64,000 bases of DNA, from contig PLMK01000042.1 of NCBI GenBank assembly GCA_003142475.1, positions 131,586-195,585 on the forward strand. Reading direction: 5' to 3'. Below, piece after piece: positions 17,852-62,590 of the stretch (positions are counted from its first letter, which is position 1; each line of letters starts with the position of its first letter). A program made the position numbers and the translations under genes. The DNA comes from Ignavibacteriota bacterium. GTDB taxonomy: Bacteria; Bacteroidota; Ignavibacteria; UBA10030. Below the pieces are notes generated by a model. That model was not told the origin of the DNA and made no database searches. It worked only from the letters and a program-made list of their open reading frames with translations.

Positions 17852-18988
17852 ATGAACTCTTCAAATCCCGTTACCTTTTTTATTACTTATTTTGGACTGT
17901 TGTTCATTCTGCCGCTCACTCTACGTTCACAGACAAATCCAAACTTCGATTTCTCACTCGGCGTCGATTACAGTGCCGCCGAACAAATGTTAGATTATTT
18001 TGACCATCGCATTGGAAATACAAAATATGTTGCAGAGCTTCGCGGTAATCGGCTCGCCGCGGCAACAAGTGTCATGCTTGCGCGCACTGAAAAAACCGAC
18101 GATGACTTCCACCAGCAGCTTGAACTAGCACGGAATAATACAAGATTTGAAAGTGATGTGTATGGTTTTTCACCTGCGAAGAGTCATATACAGGAACTTC
18201 GAAAGCTTCTTCTAGAAATTAAGCATAGACAATTGGATCGCCGTATCGTCGCGACGATCGCCTCATTCTTTCCTGAACAAGCAAAAATCTCTACCAGATT
18301 CTCTGTATACTTCGTTGTAATAGGAAACGAACGTGCTGCCGCGTTTGTTCGGCACGTCATTTGGAATTATGATGTTCCAACTTTTGTCGGTGAAGATCAA
18401 GGGGAGCCTATTATTGTTGTCAATCTAGCTCGTATCGTTGAGGTACCAAACGACGTTGAAGATCAGTTTATTGAAGTATTAAGTACAACAGCACATGAAT
18501 GTTTTCATGCTGTATTTTCAGTTTTACAGAAATCTTTACCCGACTCCACTAAAGCAAAGAACATAGCCGATCAATTATTAGATGTGGTGCAAAACGAAGG
18601 TGTAGCGTACTATCTTTCTTTGCAAACTCATATCGGAGCTAGAACTCCTTCCCAGCAATGGTTTAATGCGACATCGCAAACAGTGGAAATGTTGAATCGT
18701 GCTCTATTAGAAATGTCTTCAACGAATCTAACTCGTGCCCGGGCACAGGAATTGATGATGAATGCCAACCTTTCCGGCTCATTCGAAGGAAACTATGGCG
18801 CTACTGCCGGTATGCGTATGGCGTACGAAATTGATTTGCGCCTCGGTAGGCCGGCACTGACAGCAACGTTAATGACTGGAAGCCGCTCATTTATTTCTAC
18901 GTATATGCAAGCATGCCTTCGCGATGGAAATCTGCCGAAGATCGATAAACAAGTTTCGCGAATGCTTCAATTGAAAAATCTTTATTGA
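17852..18988 (+). CDS. Secreted hypothetical protein with HEXXH motif (putative zinc-dependent peptidase-like, DUF2268-like)
   Basis: Signal peptide; TTAHECFHAV HEXXH motif; no closer family assignment possible by eye. Confidence 0.45.
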   Translation: MNSSNPVTFFITYFGLLFILPLTLRSQTNPNFDFSLGVDYSAAEQMLDYFDHRIGNTKYVAELRGNRLAAATSVMLARTEKTDDDFHQQLELARNNTRFESDVYGFSPAKSHIQELRKLLLEIKHRQLDRRIVATIASFFPEQAKISTRFSVYFVVIGNERAAAFVRHVIWNYDVPTFVGEDQGEPIIVVNLARIVEVPNDVEDQFIEVLSTTAHECFHAVFSVLQKSLPDSTKAKNIADQLLDVVQNEGVAYYLSLQTHIGARTPSQQWFNATSQTVEMLNRALLEMSSTNLTRARAQELMMNANLSGSFEGNYGATAGMRMAYEIDLRLGRPALTATLMTGSRSFISTYMQACLRDGNLPKIDKQVSRMLQLKNLY

Positions 18989-18999
18989 GTGAAATTACA

Positions 19000-21315
19000 T
19001 CAATAGGTTTTACTCAAGAATCCGATACCAATAAGCGCAGGGCTAAGAATGAGAACAAGAAAAACTGCGGTACCCTGGATTCCTAACACCGGCAGTAGCA
19101 CAGAACAAGTCGTTAGAGCGCCAATAGATGAACCGAACACATCAAACGCGTAAACACTTCCTACACTTAATGAACTGTGAAGATAAAATCGATTCACAAG
19201 TCCAAAAATCATTCCGATCAATCCGCCGCTGAATAACGTGACAAACAGTGTGATAGGAATCAGTCGTGCGAACAATAAGAAGTCAAATAATTTTGGCAAG
19301 AAAAGCACAACACCGATAAGCGCCATTAGAACTGCGAATAAGAGAGTCTTTTGTTCATATTTCTTGATAAGCCACGAAGCAACCAGCATACCCCCTACCA
19401 GACCAAGCATGTTTGCAGCGATCACAGCACCAACCATTTCATAAATTGAGCCGAATGCTTCCTGAAAGTTTATCAAGAAGAGAAGATTCAGCGCCATGCC
19501 AGTCATTCCACAGATAGTAATGATCGCGGCAAGTGTAGTTTGTTTTTGCTTCTCACGTTGTCTCCACCGTAAAAGAATAAGCAGTAAGATTAATCCAGAA
19601 CCAACACCGCCAGCAACGAAAATCCAAAAGCGTGTTATGTATAAAAAGAACCAATTGCTTCCCTGAAGGAATCGATTCCAAAGTAATAGATCAAAATAAT
19701 ATGTCACAGGATTATTGTCAGTATTAATTTGAACCTTCTTTGCAGTCTCCAAGGTATTTACAATAAACTTAATTCTGTCTGGCGGCATCAATTCTTCAAA
19801 CATATATTTGGAAAAGTATTCAGCAGAAATTCCGGTAGTGGTATAGCGCTGAGCGAGAGAATCTGGCTGTGAAATTAATAGTGTGGTGCTTGTTGTTCCG
19901 ATAAGTACCGCATGCGTCCCCGGAATAATCAATGTGTTAGTGAAGACGTTTCTAAATGTCTGGTAGATAGAAACATTCAAGTCTTTTAATTCATCCGCAA
20001 GATATTCGGTGGACGATGGAAATGAAAAAGCGAAAATACCGTTATCATTCAGGGATTGATAACATTGCCGAAAGAATTCTACTGTATAGAATCGATTCAA
20101 GCTTGCCGTTGATGGTTCACCAACATTCATTAAAATAACATCGAAGGAAGACATTTTACGATGCAGTAATTCTCGTCCATCCATATATATGATATGAACT
20201 CGCGAATCGTGCAGCGCCCGCTGATCTTGAATATTCATATTTGGTTCGACAAACGGAAGAAGAGCTGGATCGATCTCAACATATTCCACATCTTGAACTG
20301 GATACTTTAAAACTTCTCTCAACACTCCATTGAACCCTCCGCCTAAAATAAGCACGCGTTTCGCGTCGGTACGATGAATCATAATTGAATGCGTAAATAG
20401 TTCAGCATCGTACACATTTGGTATGTTATAGCCGGGTCGACCGTCAGCATATACGGTATGCTGGTTTTCCAGATACAAGAGAGAGAGATTCTGATATTTC
20501 GTATCGATAGAACGGACAAATGTCAACTTATCGTTGATAAACGACCACTGATAAGCATTGATTTTATATTCGAGCGAACGAATGGGCTGAAGTAGAACTG
20601 TAAACACGATGGCCATGCCGATTAAGTAAAGCGTCATTAGCCATTTCTTTTCGGAAGACATAATACACAACACTACACACCAAGCAATTATAACAATGAA
20701 AAAGACAATCTGCAGTGCTGAAAACAGTGCTGCAAAAACGAATGAAAACAATAATCCACCGACAACGCTTCCAAGCGATTCAAGCATATACGCTTTGTTC
20801 ACTCCAAACCAGAGTTCAACTTTTTCCGAAGTCAATAACTTCGCACCGAGCGTGAAAAGCAGTCCCCATAAAAAACAACCGACACTAAGAATAACAAATG
20901 AGAATCCAAGCAGGTCAAGCATAGAGAGAAATTCACCTGTAGGTGTGTGGAGAAATGCGCGGACAAATTTCACCAAGAGAATTTGCGCAAACGTTACGAG
21001 AGGCGTTATAGCAATAATAACAAGAAAGAGACGAGACACATTTCTATTATGTTTGACTATAATATTTCCGAATGCACTACCGAGACCAATCCACACCAAC
21101 CAGCAAGCGAAGATAATTCCAATGCTTAACTCATTGCCGTAGAAGCTGACAAGAAATTCCCGAACAAGAAGAATCTGCGAAAGGATTGAACCGAAGCCGA
21201 TATAAAAAAGAGATACCTGTTTTGAGTGGGAATAATTTGAATCTGTTTTAGAAATAAAAAGCTCAACGAATAGATTACTCCCGGGCTTTCGATTCATTTC
21301 ATTGAATGATGTCAT
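19000..21315 (-). CDS. Fused polytopic membrane protein / spermidine synthase-like aminopropyltransferase
   Basis: About 8 N-terminal TM helices, central SAM-MTase/spermidine synthase fold (VLILGGGFNGVLREVLKY, EIDPALL), further C-terminal TM helices. Confidence 0.75.
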   Translation of the reverse strand: MTSFNEMNRKPGSNLFVELFISKTDSNYSHSKQVSLFYIGFGSILSQILLVREFLVSFYGNELSIGIIFACWLVWIGLGSAFGNIIVKHNRNVSRLFLVIIAITPLVTFAQILLVKFVRAFLHTPTGEFLSMLDLLGFSFVILSVGCFLWGLLFTLGAKLLTSEKVELWFGVNKAYMLESLGSVVGGLLFSFVFAALFSALQIVFFIVIIAWCVVLCIMSSEKKWLMTLYLIGMAIVFTVLLQPIRSLEYKINAYQWSFINDKLTFVRSIDTKYQNLSLLYLENQHTVYADGRPGYNIPNVYDAELFTHSIMIHRTDAKRVLILGGGFNGVLREVLKYPVQDVEYVEIDPALLPFVEPNMNIQDQRALHDSRVHIIYMDGRELLHRKMSSFDVILMNVGEPSTASLNRFYTVEFFRQCYQSLNDNGIFAFSFPSSTEYLADELKDLNVSIYQTFRNVFTNTLIIPGTHAVLIGTTSTTLLISQPDSLAQRYTTTGISAEYFSKYMFEELMPPDRIKFIVNTLETAKKVQINTDNNPVTYYFDLLLWNRFLQGSNWFFLYITRFWIFVAGGVGSGLILLLILLRWRQREKQKQTTLAAIITICGMTGMALNLLFLINFQEAFGSIYEMVGAVIAANMLGLVGGMLVASWLIKKYEQKTLLFAVLMALIGVVLFLPKLFDFLLFARLIPITLFVTLFSGGLIGMIFGLVNRFYLHSSLSVGSVYAFDVFGSSIGALTTCSVLLPVLGIQGTAVFLVLILSPALIGIGFLSKTY

Positions 21316-21317
21316 TT

Positions 21318-22246
21318 CTACTTCTTATACACTGGCATACACCAATTGCGGTACTTTGTCACTCTGCCATACATGGCATCAAAAAATAGACCTCGTAATT
21401 TAAGTGTGAGCGGTCCCATTTTTCCATCAGCGATGAGGCGGTGATCGATCTTAGTAATAGAGGCAATCTGAACGCCGGTTCCACCAAAAAAGAGTTCATC
21501 CGCAAGAAATAATTCAGTCCGATCAATCGAGCGTTCCTGCACCTGCATCCCTAATTCATCTTGTATCAGTTGTATTAACGTACGGCGCACTATACCTTCT
21601 AAAATATTCTCGTTCACTGGCGGCGTTAGGAATACGCCGTTCTTCACTATAAAAATGTTTTCGGCAGAACCTTCGGAGACGTGGCCATTTTGGCTCAGGA
21701 CAATTGCCTCGTCAAATCCAGAAAGCTGCGCATCAGTTTTTTTGAGAGTGCCGAATTAACGTACGCACCGGTTATCTTGCCGCGTGCAGGAATCATATTA
21801 TCCTCCACACGCCACCAGGAGGAAATCGTTACGTGCGCACCTTCTTCCTGCTCTATATAACGTTCAAAAGGAACAGCAGCAATCGAGAGCCTCGGTGTAA
21901 GGTTATGCAAACGCACACCGATAATCTCATCGCCATAAAATGCCAGGGGGCGAATATAAATATTCTCGCGGAAATTCTGCTTTCGAATTAACTCAAGCGT
22001 CACTTCTGTCAAACTTTCTTTTGTGTACGGAAGCTCCATCCGAAGCAGCTTACTGGAATCGATAAAGCGCTTGTAATGATCGAGCGGCCGGAAGACAAAC
22101 ATTTGTTTCTCCTCGTTATTCCAGTACCCGCGGATGCCGCCAAATGTACCCGTACCGTAATTCAATCCATGCGTTAACACACCAACTTTTGCTTCTTTGT
22201 ATGGAACTATCTTGCCGTCGAAAAAGACTAATTCAGGTGTTGCCAT
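21318..22246 (-). pseudogene. ilvE: Branched-chain amino acid aminotransferase (class IV PLP enzyme) disrupted by a 1-nt frameshift in a T7/A7 homopolymer (or sequencing error)
   Basis: Two adjacent same-strand ORFs (21695..22282 and 21318..21647) together cover a full BCAT; shifting frame at the T-run 21737-21743 restores ...AYVNSALSKKTDAQLSGFDEAIVLSQNGHVSEGSAENIFIVKNG... Confidence 0.75.
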
Positions 22247-22437
22247 TTGTAAATCCTTTCTACTCAAAATAAAAACCATCACGGATAGTCTTCCTTGCCT
22301 GTTTGCCGCTTCGCTTTGTCAGGCTCACCTAAGTTTGAAGTGTCACTTAGACGCCATAGCTTCAGCGACGTAGCGCATTAGCGAGCAGGCGGAAGAACTT
22401 TATGGTTTTGATATATAAAAGATAAGAAAAACCCTGA

Positions 22438-23592
22438 TTAACACCAGACACCGGGAATTTTTTCTCCGCAGAACTTACACTTCCCTTTTACAATGTAATT
22501 GGTAAGGACGGTAAACGCGCTTCTCTCAACGATAATCTTCTTGCACTTGTAACAAATAGTGTTTTCTGCCCAATGACCTGCGACATTCCCTAAATAAATA
22601 TATTGTATCCCAGACTTCGCCGCAATATTGTATGCTTTTTCCAGCGTTGCGGTTGGTGTGGGGGGAAGTTGGCTGAGTTTGTAAAGCGGTGTAAACCGGC
22701 TGAAGTGCAGCGGTGCATCGAACAAACCGTTGGTGCATAGCCACTCGCACATTCGTTTGATTGTATCGAAGTTGTCTGTCCACGTTGGGATGACAAGATT
22801 GGTAATCTCCAACCAGACACCTTCTTCGCGCAGCACTTTCAACGTCCTGAGCACCGGTGCGAGTTTACCGGAACCGAGTGTTGCGTATGTTTCCTCATCG
22901 AAAACTTTCAAATCGATATTTGCCGCATCAAGCACCTTGCACAATTGCCGTAAAGGTTTTTCGTTGATGTATCCATTAGACTTCCACAGGTTGCAGATCT
23001 TTTTATCGCGTGCCAGCTTTGCTGTATCGTATGCGTATTCGTAAAATGTTGTCGGCTCGGAGTAAGTGTATGCAATAGATTCAGAATTGGAATTGACACA
23101 CGCTTTGACAACTTCTTCCGGCATCAAGTCAACATTATCGGATTCTTTAGGACTAACTTGTGAAATTTGCCAATTCTGACAATTGAGACACCGGAAATTA
23201 CATCCTGCAACGGCGATTGAGAATGCGTGTGTCGACGGCAAAAAATGGAAAAACGGTTTCTTCTCGATCGGATCGATATGCACAGCGCATGGATTGCCAT
23301 AAGCGATAGTATAAATTTTTCCGCTGCTCGCAACGCGATTTCTGCAAAAACCAACATCACCATCGTTCAACAAGCAACCCTGCGGACATTTTTCACACTG
23401 TAATCCATCAGCGGTCTTTGTATAAAAGAGCGCTTCCTTGCTGAACTTTCCTAAATCATTGTTCGATGTAAGTGAAAACCAATTTGTATTGAACGCGCCG
23501 ATAGCAAGTCCACCAGTACAAAAAGCGCACTGGCGGAGAAATTCACGTTTGGTAATGAAATGTGATTGTATAAATTCCTTTTTTAAATTCAT
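22438..23592 (-). CDS. amrS: AmmeMemoRadiSam system radical SAM enzyme, with Tat-like N-terminal signal
   Basis: CNFRCLNCQNW CxxxCxxC radical-SAM cluster motif; PFL-activase-like; C-terminal Cys pairs (CYKCKK...CKFCGEK); adjacent to MEMO1-AMMECR1 gene; N-terminus TKREFLRQ + hydrophobic stretch. Confidence 0.75.
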   Translation of the reverse strand: MNLKKEFIQSHFITKREFLRQCAFCTGGLAIGAFNTNWFSLTSNNDLGKFSKEALFYTKTADGLQCEKCPQGCLLNDGDVGFCRNRVASSGKIYTIAYGNPCAVHIDPIEKKPFFHFLPSTHAFSIAVAGCNFRCLNCQNWQISQVSPKESDNVDLMPEEVVKACVNSNSESIAYTYSEPTTFYEYAYDTAKLARDKKICNLWKSNGYINEKPLRQLCKVLDAANIDLKVFDEETYATLGSGKLAPVLRTLKVLREEGVWLEITNLVIPTWTDNFDTIKRMCEWLCTNGLFDAPLHFSRFTPLYKLSQLPPTPTATLEKAYNIAAKSGIQYIYLGNVAGHWAENTICYKCKKIIVERSAFTVLTNYIVKGKCKFCGEKIPGVWC

Positions 23593-23633
23593 AACAAAAT
23601 GTTATATCAAAACGATCAACAACGAACAACTGA

Positions 23634-25145
23634 TCACTTACTATTTCTCTTCTTTTCACCGAATACTAACGCTTCATATACATATAACTCAGCATCTTTC
23701 CATCCATTCCAGCCAATACCCGCTTTGTCCTGAGCACAATGACCCAGGAATTCTTCTTTCGTCCATCCAGTTTCAATTGCCACTTGCGGCAGGAATGTTC
23801 CGGAGCGAGATCCTTTTCGGATGTAGATACCGTGTTTGCCAAGTTCTATTTCATCGATTGAGCTGATTCGCCTCATTGGCGTAAGCACGGAGATTTCAAT
23901 TTCAAGTTGCGGAATTTCGTTCGATTCAACAGGTGGGAAGCGATAATCCTGTGTCGACGATGCAATTGCCATCTCCTGCACAACTTTGTATAGCGACTCG
24001 CTCGCATCGAATCTCCCAATGCATCCGCGCAAGTTGCCGTATTTTTTTAGAGTAACAAATGCACCGCAGTTTGTTTTCAATATCGATGACAAATTCTTCT
24101 CGTCTATTTCAGGTTTCGTGTTATTCTTCACATAACGCTCAACTGTGTTACGTGCAATCGCCAGCAGATCTTTCTTGTCTTTATCAGTAAGATTGAATTC
24201 CGATCGTCCCTTCTTCTCTTTCAATGAAACAGCAATTGCATTGTAGCCAACAACTCGGTTCTTCTCTCCATATTCCGTGTCACCGGAATTCTTGTATTGA
24301 ACATGTGTATACGTAACATCGGTATTGCTTTCGGTCATATAAAGAAGCGTTAGTACACTTGTCCAACCGCAAAGGCAGGTGGCAAGGTTGGAAAAACCCT
24401 TCTGCTCGTAATTCGCCATTGAGCGAATAAGATTTTCTGGTGAATTGGTGAGAATCGCATCGACGGTTGCTTTATCGATATTCTTTGCATCAGCGTATGA
24501 TGGATAGTGCGAGAAATCTGTACTGATGACAAAAAGATTCTTCGTGTTTAAGTATGGTCGAAGTGCTTCGGCAATACGCTTGCAGGTTTGAGGCGACTGC
24601 GTTCCAAGAATAATTGGCACAATTTTAAAATCCTTCTTCAATCGATATTGGAGAAAAGGAAGCTGTACTTCCAAACTGTGCTCACGGGCATGTGCATCTG
24701 TTCGATTGGAGAAGATACTGCTATTCTTGATAAGTTGATCTGCAAGCTCAGTGTTCACCTTCACTGTGCCAAGCGGCGTTATAAAATTGCCCTGCGAGTA
24801 AATCGATGCACCCTCAAAAGCGATGTAGTGACTTGAACCGAGGACGAAGATGTTCTCGTATTCTTTCGTCGTATCTATTTGGTTAATCGCCGATGCTGCA
24901 ACTTCCCCAGAAAAAACATATCCTGCATGTGGAGAAATGATTGCAATAATATTTTGAATATTTTTTGATGGGATAGCATTTGTGAAGAGCTGCTTCAATG
25001 TTGCATCGAGTTCTTCCTGCCTGGCGGGATAAAACGAACCTGCAACAGCGGGCTGCCGGTCGATTTTATTTTCTTGCGATTGGCAATCGGCGCATAAAAG
25101 CAGGGAGCAAGAAGCAAGGATTGTAATAGTCTTTGTCTTAAGCAT
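23634..25145 (-). CDS. amrB-amrA: Fusion protein: MEMO1-family (AmmeMemoRadiSam protein B) N-terminal domain + AMMECR1 (protein A) C-terminal domain, with lipoprotein-type signal peptide
   Basis: MEMO motifs AGSFYP and SPHAGYVFSG; AMMECR1 motif GAFVTLKKYGNLRGCIGRF; N-terminus MLKTKTITILASCSLLLC has a lipobox (LASC). Confidence 0.8.
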   Translation of the reverse strand: MLKTKTITILASCSLLLCADCQSQENKIDRQPAVAGSFYPARQEELDATLKQLFTNAIPSKNIQNIIAIISPHAGYVFSGEVAASAINQIDTTKEYENIFVLGSSHYIAFEGASIYSQGNFITPLGTVKVNTELADQLIKNSSIFSNRTDAHAREHSLEVQLPFLQYRLKKDFKIVPIILGTQSPQTCKRIAEALRPYLNTKNLFVISTDFSHYPSYADAKNIDKATVDAILTNSPENLIRSMANYEQKGFSNLATCLCGWTSVLTLLYMTESNTDVTYTHVQYKNSGDTEYGEKNRVVGYNAIAVSLKEKKGRSEFNLTDKDKKDLLAIARNTVERYVKNNTKPEIDEKNLSSILKTNCGAFVTLKKYGNLRGCIGRFDASESLYKVVQEMAIASSTQDYRFPPVESNEIPQLEIEISVLTPMRRISSIDEIELGKHGIYIRKGSRSGTFLPQVAIETGWTKEEFLGHCAQDKAGIGWNGWKDAELYVYEALVFGEKKRNSK

Positions 25146-25277
25146 AAGGCAAACCTTACATTGTCCGATAGAAACTTAGCGAGAAGAAGGAAGAGTTGCA
25201 AGCTGAGTTTGTCGAACGATAGAAATAAACACGCACATAAGCAATTATGTGGCGATCTATTTCTTCCTCTCTCTTAT

Positions 25278-26138
25278 TTAAAATGCAGATTTAGCTAATT
25301 GAACAGATAGCCATAATTCCATCTGTTTTGTTTTTTCTAAATTTCCGAAACGACCACCTTGATGTCCGCTGCCGCGGGATCTTCTACCTCCACCAATGCT
25401 GCCTTCTTCTGCAGGATTATCTTCGCCCACTCCTTCACTATGGTCGTGTCCACTTCCGACGCGCATGTCGCCTTTACTTTGTTCTGGTTTGAATTCACCT
25501 GTTTCGAATTCAATTCCGATGCGGTGATTTGAAATTGGTTCGATGGCAAATGGATGCTCAGAAGTTTTCTTTAATGGTACACGCAATTCATATACTAATG
25601 TCTCACGAGTGCGGCCAAGCTTCACTCGGATATCAGGTGCTTCTAACGCTGAGAACCGTTGAATATTTTCTTTCTTTGGACCAATAATTTCCATTTCAGG
25701 AAACTCTTGGTCAAGAAATAATTGAGGTTTTTCTTCGTTGCTATCAGGAGAAAATCCGGCATGTGTTCTTTGCCGGCTCATTGGATATTGGATACCAAAC
25801 GTCTGATTTCTTCCGTCTTCTCTATCAAACCAAACCGTTAAACCCTGTCGCATAATTTGCATTTGCGTGGATCGATTTTGAGTTTTTAGAAAAATGTAAA
25901 CATATTTATCATCGTTCCGCACACCATAGACCATATCGGATTCTTTATCGTAATATAATCCGCGCTGCCATTCAGAATCGCTGCCATCAATATTCATCTC
26001 GCCCTGCTGCCAATCACTGGCGAGTTTAAAACTACCGCTGCAGCCATTCAGCAGGATCAACACCACCAGCATCGCCAGTAAGGAAAGAGATGGTATGCAT
26101 ATGCACAGCCGTCGTTTTAACATTGTTGTGTTCATCAT
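25278..26138 (-). CDS. Hypothetical lipoprotein with Gly/His/Arg-rich C-terminal tail
   Basis: Signal peptide with lipobox (LLNGC); C-terminus GSGHDHSEGVGEDNPAEEGSIGGGRRSRGSGHQGGRFGN. Confidence 0.45.
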   Translation of the reverse strand: MMNTTMLKRRLCICIPSLSLLAMLVVLILLNGCSGSFKLASDWQQGEMNIDGSDSEWQRGLYYDKESDMVYGVRNDDKYVYIFLKTQNRSTQMQIMRQGLTVWFDREDGRNQTFGIQYPMSRQRTHAGFSPDSNEEKPQLFLDQEFPEMEIIGPKKENIQRFSALEAPDIRVKLGRTRETLVYELRVPLKKTSEHPFAIEPISNHRIGIEFETGEFKPEQSKGDMRVGSGHDHSEGVGEDNPAEEGSIGGGRRSRGSGHQGGRFGNLEKTKQMELWLSVQLAKSAF

Positions 26139-26348
26139 TCTTCCATTTGCTATGTGACAATATCTTTGCTCGTCGATAAATTACATAAATTTGACGAATG
26201 ATAAATGCCTTAGTTTCATAAATGTAATAATTTATATTAAGTTATTGGTATAAAATTTATTTTGTGAAACGTCTGTTTCACTAATTGAGTTCATGGAAAA
26301 AGAATACTACATTTTCTTTAGGAACGACATTCATAAGGAATTAAAAAA

Positions 26349-27122
26349 ATGACATCACTCACTAATACTGTTGTTTTCATCACCGGTGCTAGCAGCGGCA
26401 TTGGCCGTTCGTGTGCACGCACATTTGCTGAAGCCGGCGCAAAACTCATTCTCGCCGCTCGCCGCAAAAACCGATTGGAAAAACTCGCAGCAGACTTAAA
26501 AAAACAATTCAATACCGAAACATTTATTGACGAATTAGACGTACGTGACAACCGTGCTGTAGCAAAGTTTTATAAAAATCTTCCTGTGGAATGGCGGAAT
26601 ATAGACATTCTCGTCAACAATGCCGGACTAAGCCGCGGACTAGATAAGTTATATGAGGGAAAATTTGAAGACTGGGATGAAATGATCGACACGAACGTAA
26701 AGGGGCTGCTCTACGTCAGCCGTACAGTGCTTCCCGGAATGGTAAAGCGTAAGAAAGGCACAGTCATCAACATCGGTTCCATTGCCGGGCATGATGTGTA
26801 CACATGCGGAAATGTGTATTGCGCAACCAAGCATGCCGTCGATGCTCTTACCAAAGGAATGCGGATGGATTTAGTTGATACACCGATTCGCGTATGCACA
26901 GTTGATCCCGGATTAGTGGAAACGGAATTCAGCGAAGTGCGCTTTCACGGCGACAAGGAACGCGCAAAAAAAACATATCAGAACATGACGCCGCTAACAC
27001 CCGACGATATCGCAGACGCCGTTTTATTCGCAGCTACACGTCCACCGCACGTACAAATTGCAGAGTTAATTATTATGCCGACCGCGCAAGCTTCAACAAC
27101 GCTTGTGCATCGCACACAGTGA
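26349..27122 (+). CDS. SDR family NADP-dependent oxidoreductase (YdfG/serine 3-dehydrogenase-like)
   Basis: TGASSGIG cofactor motif, NNAG, catalytic YCATK. Confidence 0.85.
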   Translation: MTSLTNTVVFITGASSGIGRSCARTFAEAGAKLILAARRKNRLEKLAADLKKQFNTETFIDELDVRDNRAVAKFYKNLPVEWRNIDILVNNAGLSRGLDKLYEGKFEDWDEMIDTNVKGLLYVSRTVLPGMVKRKKGTVINIGSIAGHDVYTCGNVYCATKHAVDALTKGMRMDLVDTPIRVCTVDPGLVETEFSEVRFHGDKERAKKTYQNMTPLTPDDIADAVLFAATRPPHVQIAELIIMPTAQASTTLVHRTQ

Positions 27123-27235: not shown

Positions 27236-27865
27236 CTACTGAATGATTTTATGTTTATACGCATATTTGACCAATTCGATGTTTGACTTTGCATGAAGTT
27301 TAGCCAGCACGCGTTTGCGGTAGGAGTTGATTGTATTAATTGAAACCTTATACTCCCCGGCAATTTCTTTGGAACTTTTTCCTTCTGCTAATCCTCGTAA
27401 CACTTCGAATTCGCGATCGGACAAATCATGATGTTTTGGCTTTTCTATAGTCTCATCGATAAGATCTGGAAGTTCTTGCTGAACTTCCGGGCTGAAATAT
27501 TTCATACCTCGAGTAACTGTTCGTACTGCTTTGATTAATTCTTCTCCCGGTTCGGATTTTGTTAAGTAGCCGGATGCTCCCGCCTGCAATACTCTGCGCG
27601 CATACTGCGACACAGGAACCATGCTCAAAACCAATACCGGCACTTTCGATTCGATAGATCTAATCGAACTAAGAATTTCAAGTCCCCCTTTTCCCTGAAG
27701 ATTGATATCGAGAACAATGATATCCCACTTATTATTTTTTATTTGCTCCATGGCATCTTCATAAGTTCCTGCCAGCGCGAGTTTTGTAATTTCGAAATTG
27801 TCGGTCAAAATGTGACCAACACCTTCACGCGTAAATTCATGATCATCGACAACAAGCGCTCTCAA
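27236..27865 (-). CDS. Two-component response regulator, NarL/FixJ (LuxR-HTH) family
   Basis: TTG start; receiver domain with VVDDH...D (DINL); C-terminal LuxR-type HTH (LSDREFEVLRGLAEGKSSKEIA). Confidence 0.85.
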   Translation of the reverse strand: MRALVVDDHEFTREGVGHILTDNFEITKLALAGTYEDAMEQIKNNKWDIIVLDINLQGKGGLEILSSIRSIESKVPVLVLSMVPVSQYARRVLQAGASGYLTKSEPGEELIKAVRTVTRGMKYFSPEVQQELPDLIDETIEKPKHHDLSDREFEVLRGLAEGKSSKEIAGEYKVSINTINSYRKRVLAKLHAKSNIELVKYAYKHKIIQ

Positions 27866-28695
27866 AGTGAGTCACCTCCCGCCTTTGCCACATTTGCCTC
27901 GTTTAATTGATTTCCGCCATGGATCGGAGCGCTTAAAATAACGCATGTGCCTTTTCCGGGATTGCTTGTGATTGCAATTTTTCCTCCTAACATCCGGGCG
28001 CGTTCCTGCATGCTCAAAATTCCTAATGATTCAGGATGGGCGATCATCGCCTGGTCAATGCCCTTACCATTGTCTGCAATCTCCACTCGAAGTTCACCAT
28101 CGTTCAATTGCATTGCAACTTCAGCACGCGTTGCCCCTGAATGACGGGCAACATTGGTCAATGCTTCCTGAATGATTCTATAAACTCCGGTTGCCACCGC
28201 ATCATCCAAGGATGGAAGCTTATTTATTTCTTTAAGTTTTACTTCGATTGATGTTCGCTTTGTGAATTCACGCGTATGCCATTCTACCGCCGCTTCCAAT
28301 CCGACTGTATCTAAAATTTTCGGCCGCAATCCGGAAGAGATTCTCTGGACTGTTTTCGTTGTTGTATCCACCATTGCCCGAATAGTTTGGAACCGTTCTT
28401 TTACGACACTTTTCATTGCCGTATGTTTCCCTAACCAGAGCAAATCATACTTGATACCAGTGAGAGCGCCGCCGAGTTCATCGTGCAGTTCGCGGGCAAT
28501 TTGTTTTTGTTCTTCCTCCCGTGCCGATTGAAGTTTTTCTGAAAATATTTGCATTTGGCGGATTCGTTCACGTTGAGCGGCTTCGATTTTGCGATGACTG
28601 CGCACCATCATTATTACAAAAAATAAAAACAGCCCAAGCACTACCGTGGTAACACTGAAAATTGCTGTAAGTATTATGTTCGAGTCTGAGGACAC
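27862..28695 (-). CDS. Sensor histidine kinase (HisKA_3 + HATPase_c) with a single N-terminal TM helix
   Basis: GTG start; H-box ELHDELGGALT, ATPase G-boxes DNGKGI / GLGILSMQERA; 4-nt overlap with the response regulator gene. Confidence 0.8.
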   Translation of the reverse strand: MSSDSNIILTAIFSVTTVVLGLFLFFVIMMVRSHRKIEAAQRERIRQMQIFSEKLQSAREEEQKQIARELHDELGGALTGIKYDLLWLGKHTAMKSVVKERFQTIRAMVDTTTKTVQRISSGLRPKILDTVGLEAAVEWHTREFTKRTSIEVKLKEINKLPSLDDAVATGVYRIIQEALTNVARHSGATRAEVAMQLNDGELRVEIADNGKGIDQAMIAHPESLGILSMQERARMLGGKIAITSNPGKGTCVILSAPIHGGNQLNEANVAKAGGDSL

Positions 28696-61610: not shown

Positions 61611-61657
61611 CAAGTATCTTTGATTCAATATTAAAAGTATTTATGGTGGAGATATCC

Positions 61658-62590
61658 ATGAAAAATAATATTGATCGTCGTGAATTTATTAGGCAGAGTG
61701 TCGCGGCAGGTGTCGTCGCTGCTATAGGATCAGCCTCTCTTCCCTCTACTCTCTTTGGAAATTTCATTCCTTCCAAAATCGATATTTCTGTTGTAAACGG
61801 GACAGATTTTTTTGAGAATACAATGAAAGCTGTCGAAATGTTCGACGGTATGAGTAAGTTTGTTCCGAAAGGAAGCAAGGTCGGACTGCTTATTAACTCT
61901 CCTTGGAGCAAACCAGGAACGTATACAAACCCTGATGTCGCACTTGCTGTTTTGAAGATGTGCTTCGATGCAGGCGCAAAAGAAATATATTCCATTGAAG
62001 ATGCTTCGACGAATTACTGGAAACGGAGTAAACTCTACGGGAAGTTTGAAAAAGAAGTCGGCAAAATTCAATCGGGTGGTTCTAAAACGACTGCGAAGAT
62101 TCCAAAAGGAAAATGTCTGAAGGAAGCCGAAATTTCAAAGACCCTTCTTGAGTGCGATGTCCTCATCAACATTCCGATTGTGAAAAACCATCAAGGCACA
62201 AACTTCACGGCCAACTTGAAAAATATGATGGGTGCATGCTCGGGCTCGACAAACAGATTTTTCCACAAGGGTTCCGGGAAAAGCGGACTGTTTGGATACT
62301 ACGATGACACCGAATTTCTTTCGCAGTGCATTGCCGATGTGAATTTAATGCGTCAACCAAATCTTTGTGTTGTTGATGCAACAGAATTTGTTATTACTAA
62401 TGGGCCGGCCGGTCCAGGTGAGATCAAAAAAGCCCATAAAGTAATCGCCGGTACAAACCGTGTCTCCGTTGATGCCTATTGCTCAACTTTGCTCGGATTA
62501 ATTCCTCAGGACATTTTGATGATTCAGTACGCTCGCGAACATGGCCTCGGCAAAATTGACTTAAAGAAACTAACGATCAAAGAAATCTAA
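61658..62590 (+). CDS. DUF362-domain protein with twin-arginine (Tat) signal
   Basis: RREFIRQSVAAGVVAAIGSA Tat motif; RBS GGAG before ATG 61658. Confidence 0.55.
   Translation: MKNNIDRREFIRQSVAAGVVAAIGSASLPSTLFGNFIPSKIDISVVNGTDFFENTMKAVEMFDGMSKFVPKGSKVGLLINSPWSKPGTYTNPDVALAVLKMCFDAGAKEIYSIEDASTNYWKRSKLYGKFEKEVGKIQSGGSKTTAKIPKGKCLKEAEISKTLLECDVLINIPIVKNHQGTNFTANLKNMMGACSGSTNRFFHKGSGKSGLFGYYDDTEFLSQCIADVNLMRQPNLCVVDATEFVITNGPAGPGEIKKAHKVIAGTNRVSVDAYCSTLLGLIPQDILMIQYAREHGLGKIDLKKLTIKEI

Follow-up and report, generated by a model that had tools for sequence, protein, structure and literature searches.

In which compartment does an AmmeMemoRadiSam system act when both of its proteins begin with an apparent export signal? 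This question is raised by a locus in a 64,000-nucleotide stretch of DNA from an Ignavibacteriota bacterium (assembly GCA_003142475.1, contig PLMK01000042.1, positions 131,586 to 195,585 of the forward strand). The whole stretch is called the window below, and all positions are counted within it. MEMO1 and AMMECR1 are disease-linked proteins, with conservation that extends from archaea to humans. We know of no established chemistry for MEMO1, AMMECR1, or the bacterial radical S-adenosylmethionine (SAM) partner of these proteins. A preliminary description of the window had proposed that a fused MEMO1-AMMECR1 protein and the neighboring radical SAM enzyme both carried secretion signals.

In this study, the gene models, leaders, neighbors, and relatives of the locus were investigated. 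The locus is likely to encode an extracytoplasmic version of the AmmeMemoRadiSam system. All comparative tests agreed with the export of the radical SAM enzyme as well as of its MEMO/AMMECR1 partner. The export reading is supported by conserved leaders, a KR pair homologous to the RR of canonical twin-arginine translocation (Tat) signals, the lack of alternative start codons, a conserved membrane partner, and the fusion architectures of sister enzymes.

Locus and Family Assignment

The fusion gene and the radical SAM gene were found on the minus strand at the positions first reported, with the radical SAM gene downstream of the fusion gene across a gap of 41 bp. The three components of the system are thus encoded together, and the same linkage was seen in most of 81 loci compared. 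The genes and their main domains are as follows.

23634..25145, minus strand: gene of the fusion of Memo (system protein B) and AMMECR1 (system protein A), 503 aa with predicted signal peptide (TIGR04336 and TIGR04335; PF01875 and PF01871)
24228..25058, minus strand: Memo domain, aa 30–306 (Pfam and NCBIfam matches; alignment to human MEMO1, 7kq8)
23661..24167, minus strand: AMMECR1 domain, aa 327–495 (Pfam and NCBIfam matches; PDB relatives 1zq7 and 1vaj)
22438..23592, minus strand: gene of the AmmeMemoRadiSam radical SAM enzyme, 384 aa with predicted N-terminal export signal (TIGR04337, match from aa 57)
22444..23424, minus strand: radical SAM core with extra Cys sets (PF04055 and PF13353; alignment of 25 diverse relatives)

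The fusion protein scored 261 bits against TIGR04336/Memo (cutoff 26) over aa 30–306 and 170.2 bits against TIGR04335/AMMECR1 (cutoff 99) over aa 327–495. Both domains exceeded their cutoffs in the order B-A, so the 503-residue fusion reported before was confirmed. The 384-residue radical SAM enzyme scored 325.1 bits against TIGR04337 (cutoff 220), and the match began at aa 57, leaving an N-terminal extension of 56 residues. The Memo domain kept the PHAG, SSH, and DFSH motifs in the alignment with human MEMO1 (7kq8); we take these to correspond to His49, His81, and Asp189/His192 of MEMO1. The CX3CX2C motif of the radical SAM enzyme (C131, C135, and C138) was invariant among 25 diverse relatives. 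Two further Cys sets, C66/C69/C73/C83 and C347/C350/C372/C375, were invariant or nearly so in the same alignment. The named homologs came from Ignavibacteriales or "Bacteroidota" metagenome-assembled genomes (MAGs). By every curated criterion, the locus is a member of the AmmeMemoRadiSam system.

Gene Models and Reality of the Fusion

The two N-terminal extensions could have resulted from wrong start codons, and the fusion from a frameshift or assembly error. In both genes, however, an in-frame stop lay just upstream of the ATG, which was the first start to follow it. The next in-frame ATG, GTG, or TTG was at codon 74 of the radical SAM gene and codon 50 of the fusion gene, both within conserved domains. 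Neither extension can therefore be removed by choosing a later start, as would have been needed to eliminate the signals. The identical fusion protein occurred in independent assemblies from JGI, ENA, NCBI, and Logan, on at least 24 contigs in total. Both Pfam domains were present in all the homolog clusters listed (at least 120, with 64–100% identity), apart from a few truncated gene calls. Most of these clusters had about 500 aa. Among these homologs, the gene was fused rather than split.

The suspicion of regional sequence errors could draw only on a neighboring gene. A class IV (branched-chain/D-amino-acid) aminotransferase between the radical SAM gene and the membrane protein gene described below was split into open reading frames (ORFs) 21318..21647 and 21695..22282, both on the minus strand. 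Three independent metagenome contigs showed the same split, which is accordingly a real frameshift, a pseudogene, or a two-part gene. The start-codon, contig, and homolog data refute an artefact, whose probability is negligible. In a relative with 82% identity (L006), no aminotransferase occurred at that position, and the radical SAM and membrane protein genes were adjacent.

Leader of the Radical SAM Enzyme

The N-terminus of the radical SAM enzyme contained two features.

23494..23592, minus strand: predicted Tat-type signal or anchor, aa 1–33 (KR-x-F-[LIMT] conserved among homologs; R16 invariant)
23533..23553, minus strand: motif T14-K-R-E-F-L-R20, followed by the hydrophobic region CAFCTGGLAIGAF

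The motif T-K-R-E-F-L-R-Q was followed by the uncharged stretch CAFCTGGLAIGAF, with a mean Kyte–Doolittle (KD) hydropathy of 1.72, compared with 2.35 for the Sec-type signal of the fusion. The pattern [S/T]-K-R-x-F-[L/I/M]-[R/K] was found in 118 of 120 homologs with 64–98% identity, K and R being invariant, and the two exceptions to KR-x-F were truncated gene calls. A median of 15 uncharged residues followed the KR motif in the 118 homologs (mean KD 1.2). The Tat-like motif and hydrophobic region reported earlier were therefore present, with KR in place of RR. The strict Tat rule calls for consecutive arginines in S/T-R-R-x-F-L-K; the other five motif positions fitted. The uncharged, moderately hydrophobic region and the cofactor-bearing passenger, an Fe-S enzyme, also corresponded to Tat signals.

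Rule-based predictors that require RR would reject the KR of the window, so the Tat assignment rests on homology. In an exhaustive search of representatives at 50% identity, classic TIGR04337 members were leaderless proteins of about 330–345 aa. Of the 150 best representatives, about 30 (36–50% identity) had 370–396 aa and canonical RR motifs, such as TRRRFLA, SRRDFIK, NRREFLG, and SRREFLK. In the alignment of the 25 diverse relatives, R16 was invariant and K15 was aligned with the first Arg of SRRxFLK-type motifs. This alignment indicates that the leader is homologous to bona fide Tat-type signals.

The 81 loci contained 83 radical SAM ORFs: 29 with KR, 25 with RR, 3 with RK, 1 with KK (likely miscalled), 8 with a transmembrane or Sec-like segment, and 17 with no signal. 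The KR form was typical of Ignavibacteriota and Bacteroidota, and RR prevailed in Desulfobacterales/Thermodesulfobacteriota, Omnitrophota, and other phyla. Natural KR-type Tat signals are known from Salmonella TtrB and the plant Rieske protein.

No clear or conserved AxA-type cleavage site was found in the leader by homolog comparison. The leader may therefore stay in place as a membrane tether, by analogy with Rieske proteins. The Cys residues within the leader (CAFC) were considered as cluster ligands and rejected, as they were not conserved in more distant homologs. Elsewhere in the window, a DUF362 protein of 315 aa (61643..62590, plus strand) carried the canonical twin-arginine signal DRREFIRQ (NNIDRREFIRQSVAAGVVAAIGSA). 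The organism is thus predicted to use RR-type Tat signals, which suggests that KR is a trait of the radical SAM family and not of the organism.

Leader of the Fusion Protein

The leader of the fusion protein was of a different type.

25077..25145, minus strand: predicted Sec-type signal peptide, aa 1–23 (conserved n-, h-, and c-regions; predicted cleavage CQS|Q24, with Cys21 at −3)

The fusion began with a basic n-region (K3 and K5) and a hydrophobic stretch with a mean KD of 2.35. All full-length homologs had a basic n-region and a hydrophobic core of 12–16 residues, and the signal peptide was flagged in 29 loci across phyla. In 101 of 110 homologs, Cys21 was placed eight residues ahead of DRQPAVAG, the sequence that opens the Memo domain, with x-S/A-Q behind it; in 70 of the 110, the residue before Cys21 was D or N. 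Six full-length homologs lacked Cys21 and kept the Gln. Gln24 was the most conserved residue of the c-region. In Ignavibacterium album, 77% of predicted signal peptidase I substrates expose Gln, a preference called the Q-rule (PMC5837995). K3/K5, the hydropathy of the h-region, and the sequence C21-Q-S|Q24 fitted a signal for the general secretory (Sec) pathway and signal peptidase I with this rule. Because C21-x-S-Q24 is conserved and the Q-rule holds in I. album, cleavage by signal peptidase I is predicted before Gln24.

The secretion signal proposed for the fusion in the preliminary description was thus retained as a conserved Sec-type signal, and its assignment as a lipoprotein signal with the lipobox LASC was not. 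A signal peptidase II substrate should have the lipobox [LVI]-[ASTVI]-[GAS]-C with Cys at about position 15–35. Cys13 of LASC is too close to the N-terminus, K3 and K5 lie inside the span that should be uncharged, and many homologs have no Cys there; conservation is instead seen at C21. The leader is therefore more likely of the signal peptidase I (Q-rule) type. Orthologous fusions in other phyla had canonical lipoboxes, LVGC (L049), PLGC (L080), and SASC (L077), and in view of these the fusion could still be lipidated.

A 13-Helix SpeE-Like Membrane Protein

A third gene, unremarked in the preliminary description, was located near the two others.

19000..21315, minus strand: gene of a "fused MFS/spermidine synthase" protein, 771 aa with 13 predicted transmembrane segments (PF01564, 81 bits; NF037959, 50.8 bits, cutoff 40)
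19621..20580, minus strand: domain with aminopropyltransferase fold, aa 246–565, between transmembrane segments 7 and 8 (predicted outward-facing; consensus of 45 homologs)

The gene lay between the fusion and radical SAM genes in two other loci (L001 and L007). A relative with 67% identity had the order fusion, 729-aa Spermine_synth membrane protein, radical SAM enzyme. The recurring cluster consisted of a signal-bearing Memo-AMMECR1 fusion, a homolog of ORF 19000..21315 with about 700–830 aa, and a leader-bearing radical SAM enzyme. Among loci with flanks of at least 3 kb, 31 of 36 leader-bearing radical SAM genes had the membrane protein gene no more than 3.5 kb away, compared with 2 of 9 genes that had no leader (Fisher p = 5e-4, not phylogeny-corrected). 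By this conserved linkage, the 13-helix SpeE-like protein is a further component of the exported variant.

The alignment of 45 sequences gave 13 consensus transmembrane segments (7 + 6). The summed per-loop means of Lys and Arg were 26.6 for the even loops and 6.0 for the short odd loops. The domain of 320 residues forms odd loop 7, on the side poor in Lys and Arg, and is therefore predicted to face outward.

The AlphaFold2 model of the membrane protein had a pLDDT of 87 and a pTM of 0.85. The best Foldseek match of the soluble domain was 1uir (E = 1e-11; TM-score 0.74 on the target over about 280 aligned columns). Compared with T. maritima SpeE (1inl), GGGDG was changed to GGGFNG, with Phe at the position of the dcSAM-selective Asp, and the catalytic DSTDP (DxxDP) was changed to NVGEP; the family consensus at the catalytic motif was N-L-P-x-P-x-T. 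Both the glycine-rich loop and the acidic residue that binds ribose were kept. The protein matched the aminopropyltransferase fold and the subfamily model NF037959, and it scored 87.8 bits against the SpeE equivalog model TIGR00417 (cutoff 249.55). By this score and its altered motifs, the membrane protein is not a canonical spermidine synthase. The SpeE-fold domain probably binds an adenosyl ligand.

Distribution of the Variant

The 81 loci were obtained by scanning one genome per species with a 10-sequence alignment as the query, and they were annotated by our own ORF calling, phmmer, and leader analysis. The signal-bearing radical SAM enzyme, the signal-bearing fusion, and the 13-helix protein gene co-occurred in this set, which came from about ten phyla. 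The preliminary description had left open whether the extensions were lineage-specific. The leaders, as classified here, mark out a widespread subfamily with members in about ten phyla. At least one carrier of the variant, Mangrovibacterium marinum DSM 28823, is in culture.

Two loci (L027:1961-9149 and L069:6673-9119) had a leaderless, cytoplasmic-type radical SAM gene beside a leader-bearing one. This suggests that cytoplasmic and exported versions coexist as paralogs in one genome. The leaderless gene of L027 was accompanied by a separate, unfused Memo gene. Five loci from Bacteroidales/Paludibacter MAGs (L031, L038, L040, L042, and L061) had fusions and radical SAM enzymes without leaders and had no SpeE-like gene. 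The fusion of A and B therefore appears not to be tied to export, whereas the membrane protein gene appears to be.

Fusion Architectures of Sister Enzymes

Outside the Ignavibacteria clade, the closest representatives of the radical SAM enzyme (48–51% identity) were fusion proteins.

P0255 and P0280: N-terminal transmembrane segment, FMN_bind, and radical SAM enzyme, with no transmembrane segment between the domains
P0250: signal, CBM_11, and radical SAM enzyme
P0253: signal, beta-propeller, and radical SAM enzyme
P0249 and P0251: DsbD_2 and radical SAM enzyme
P0252, P0256, and P0267: FMN_bind, NapH-like Fer4_5, and radical SAM enzyme

In P0256 and P0267, six transmembrane segments lay between FMN_bind and the radical SAM domain, and two CxxxCP loops were on the side rich in Lys and Arg. 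With an even number of segments between them, the radical SAM domain is placed on the same side as FMN_bind. FMN_bind domains N-terminal to NapH-like proteins are described as extracytosolic (PMC8238504). The main text of that paper (Meheust et al. 2021) mentions no Memo, AMMECR1, or radical SAM partners. A twin-arginine motif was looked for before the last transmembrane segment of the NapH-like fusions and was not clearly found. The sister architectures suggest a possible electron source for the enzyme.

Two further arrangements were observed. In an Omnitrophota MAG (L068:1808-5792), the gene of a DsbD_2-type membrane protein lay between the leader-bearing radical SAM gene and the SpeE-like gene; this separate gene matches the DsbD_2-radical SAM fusions found elsewhere. 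P0248 (835 aa) is a single polypeptide with an N-terminal signal-like segment followed by Memo, AMMECR1, and the radical SAM enzyme, and it had no internal Tat-like segment and no RR.

Proposed Mechanism and Alternative Localizations

In the proposed mechanism, the radical SAM enzyme would be exported by Tat with its cluster already loaded, possibly remaining tethered to the membrane by its uncleaved signal. The fusion would cross unfolded via Sec and be cut by signal peptidase I before Gln24. The SpeE-like domain would likewise be exposed at the outer face, and the target of the radical SAM enzyme at this face would be either the Memo-AMMECR1 protein or a molecule of the cell envelope. The fusion is proposed as a substrate because the nearest characterized relatives, the glycyl-radical activases, act on proteins. 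More speculatively, the SpeE-like protein might bind SAM or a SAM-derived ligand outside, supplying a cosubstrate or performing a coupled alkyl transfer. Also more speculatively, electrons might come from membrane-spanning redox modules, which in sister lineages are fused to the enzyme (FMN_bind, NapH/NosR-like, and DsbD_2). The most complete form of this proposal would be the first extracytoplasmic radical SAM system, combining a Tat-exported radical SAM enzyme, a Sec-exported fusion, a 13-helix SAM-presenting protein, and FMN/Fe-S/thiol electron modules. This form is tentative.

Several observations weigh against an extracytoplasmic system. The calls of localization and topology are computational throughout, and the topology of the membrane protein comes from our own hydropathy and positive-inside analysis. 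A per-sequence test of transmembrane parity was noisy (30 versus 14 of 44 proteins), and the alignment-based consensus was used instead. The co-occurrence of leader and membrane protein gene was calculated uncorrected for phylogeny. In the window, the genes have no redox module as a neighbor, and we know of no periplasmic SAM pool, no SAM exporter, and no electron donor available to SAM outside the cytoplasm. The window motif is KR, which RR-requiring predictors would reject. The NCBIfam and Pfam profiles of Tat signals (E up to 10) gave no match on the N-terminus of the radical SAM enzyme; they also missed two RR controls. Some Omnitrophota orthologs and the fusions P0248, P0250, and P0280 had strongly hydrophobic, Sec-like N-termini without RR, which are hard to reconcile with the export of an Fe-S enzyme. 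Lys substitution is reported to be poorly tolerated in Tat test substrates of E. coli (PMC7317946).

The last study and the KR found throughout Ignavibacteriota and Bacteroidota also fit a cytoplasmic maturase, as does the lack of a known SAM supply in the periplasm. The radical SAM enzyme would then modify the Memo-AMMECR1 precursor before its Sec export, as anaerobic sulfatase-maturing enzymes act on sulfatases. Its KR leader would be vestigial or regulatory, only binding a chaperone or holding the enzyme at the membrane; vestigial Tat motifs are known on cytoplasmic enzymes such as NarG. This arrangement is unlikely. The hydrophobic region is fully conserved, unlike that of vestigial leaders, and orthologs in other phyla have textbook RR signals. 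In sister enzymes, the radical SAM domain shares its side of the membrane with the fused FMN_bind and CBM_11 modules, and the soluble domain of the conserved membrane partner is predicted to face outward. A membrane-anchored complex facing the cytoplasm was also weighed, in which the hydrophobic segments would be anchors and the SpeE-like domain would lie inside like the central loop of the major facilitator superfamily (MFS). MFS central loops are cytoplasmic, and the NCBI name of the partner is "fused MFS/spermidine synthase"; the 14 of 44 proteins with the opposite orientation in the per-sequence test and the cytoplasmic location of SAM and reductants point the same way. Against it, the positive charges before both N-terminal hydrophobic segments predict N-in, C-out insertion. 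The consensus alternates cleanly, with seven segments before the domain and the Lys/Arg-rich loops opposite, and the Q-rule-type cleavage motif points to a cleaved, exported fusion. Such a complex is also improbable, and the extracytoplasmic system is preferred.

Comparison with Known Systems

The locus shares with the AmmeMemoRadiSam system three model matches above curated cutoffs, adjacent genes on one strand, and the conserved CX3CX2C and Memo His/Asp motifs. It differs in the B-A fusion, the predicted export signals on both polypeptides, the conserved 13-helix SpeE-like partner, and the KR variant of the Tat motif. The radical SAM enzyme resembles Tat-exported Fe-S proteins, including the Rieske protein with its uncleaved Tat anchor, in its S/T-x-R-x-F-L-K-type motif, mild hydrophobic region, Fe-S passenger, and absence of an obvious cleavage site, whereas KR replaces RR in the lineage of the window. 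We know of no radical SAM enzyme shown to be a Tat substrate.

FMN_bind, Fer4_5 (CxxxCP), and DsbD_2, found on sister radical SAM enzymes with 48–51% identity, are shared with the NosR/NapH-like and DsbD-type systems associated with flavinylation (PMC8238504); the enzyme of the window lacks modules of this kind, and its neighborhood encodes none. The membrane partner's soluble domain shows the complete fold of SpeE (PDB 1uir, 1inl, and 3o4f), but it is inserted between seven and six transmembrane helices, is predicted to face outward, and has altered GGGDG and DxxDP motifs. Glycyl-radical activases (PFL-AE, the pyruvate formate-lyase activating enzyme; TIGR02493) are the closest characterized and structurally solved relatives of the radical SAM core and have a protein substrate. 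The enzyme of the window differs from PFL-AE in its score of 56.8 bits (cutoff 231.75), its extra N- and C-terminal Cys clusters, and the absence of a glycyl-radical enzyme nearby.

The fused proteins and the membrane protein are already named by annotation pipelines. A literature search, whose coverage excluded Burroughs et al. 2019, found no description of an exported AmmeMemoRadiSam variant or a Tat-targeted radical SAM enzyme. The study by Burroughs et al. 2019 (J Biol Chem) is reportedly the main comparative work on Memo-AMMECR1-radical SAM contexts and might contain an earlier description.

Three things are required for radical SAM chemistry: SAM itself, an electron donor of low potential, and a cluster that is sensitive to oxygen. 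An exported variant would challenge the assumption that this chemistry is confined to the cytoplasm. It would narrow the candidate substrates of the MEMO1/AMMECR1 family in these bacteria to molecules exposed in the envelope or to the partner proteins. The SpeE-like protein would add a conserved partner, new to the system, whose fold is of the SAM-binding type, and the FMN_bind, NapH-like, and DsbD_2 fusions point to a possible electron route to the exported enzyme. With M. marinum DSM 28823 as a cultured carrier, the question is directly testable.

Other Features Around the Locus

A scan of 18800..26400 for sigma-70 promoters and intrinsic terminators gave no more sites than shuffled sequence and was uninformative on operon structure. 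Directly upstream of the fusion gene, an ORF of 286 aa (25278..26138, minus strand) began like a lipoprotein (…LLNGC) and was rich in Gly and Arg in its C-terminal part. This ORF was rejected as an extra component, having no Pfam or NCBIfam match and being seen only in contigs of the same species. Further upstream lay a gene pair for a histidine kinase (HisKA_3) and a response regulator of the LuxR type (27236..28695, minus strand), set apart from the system by a divergent short-chain dehydrogenase gene.

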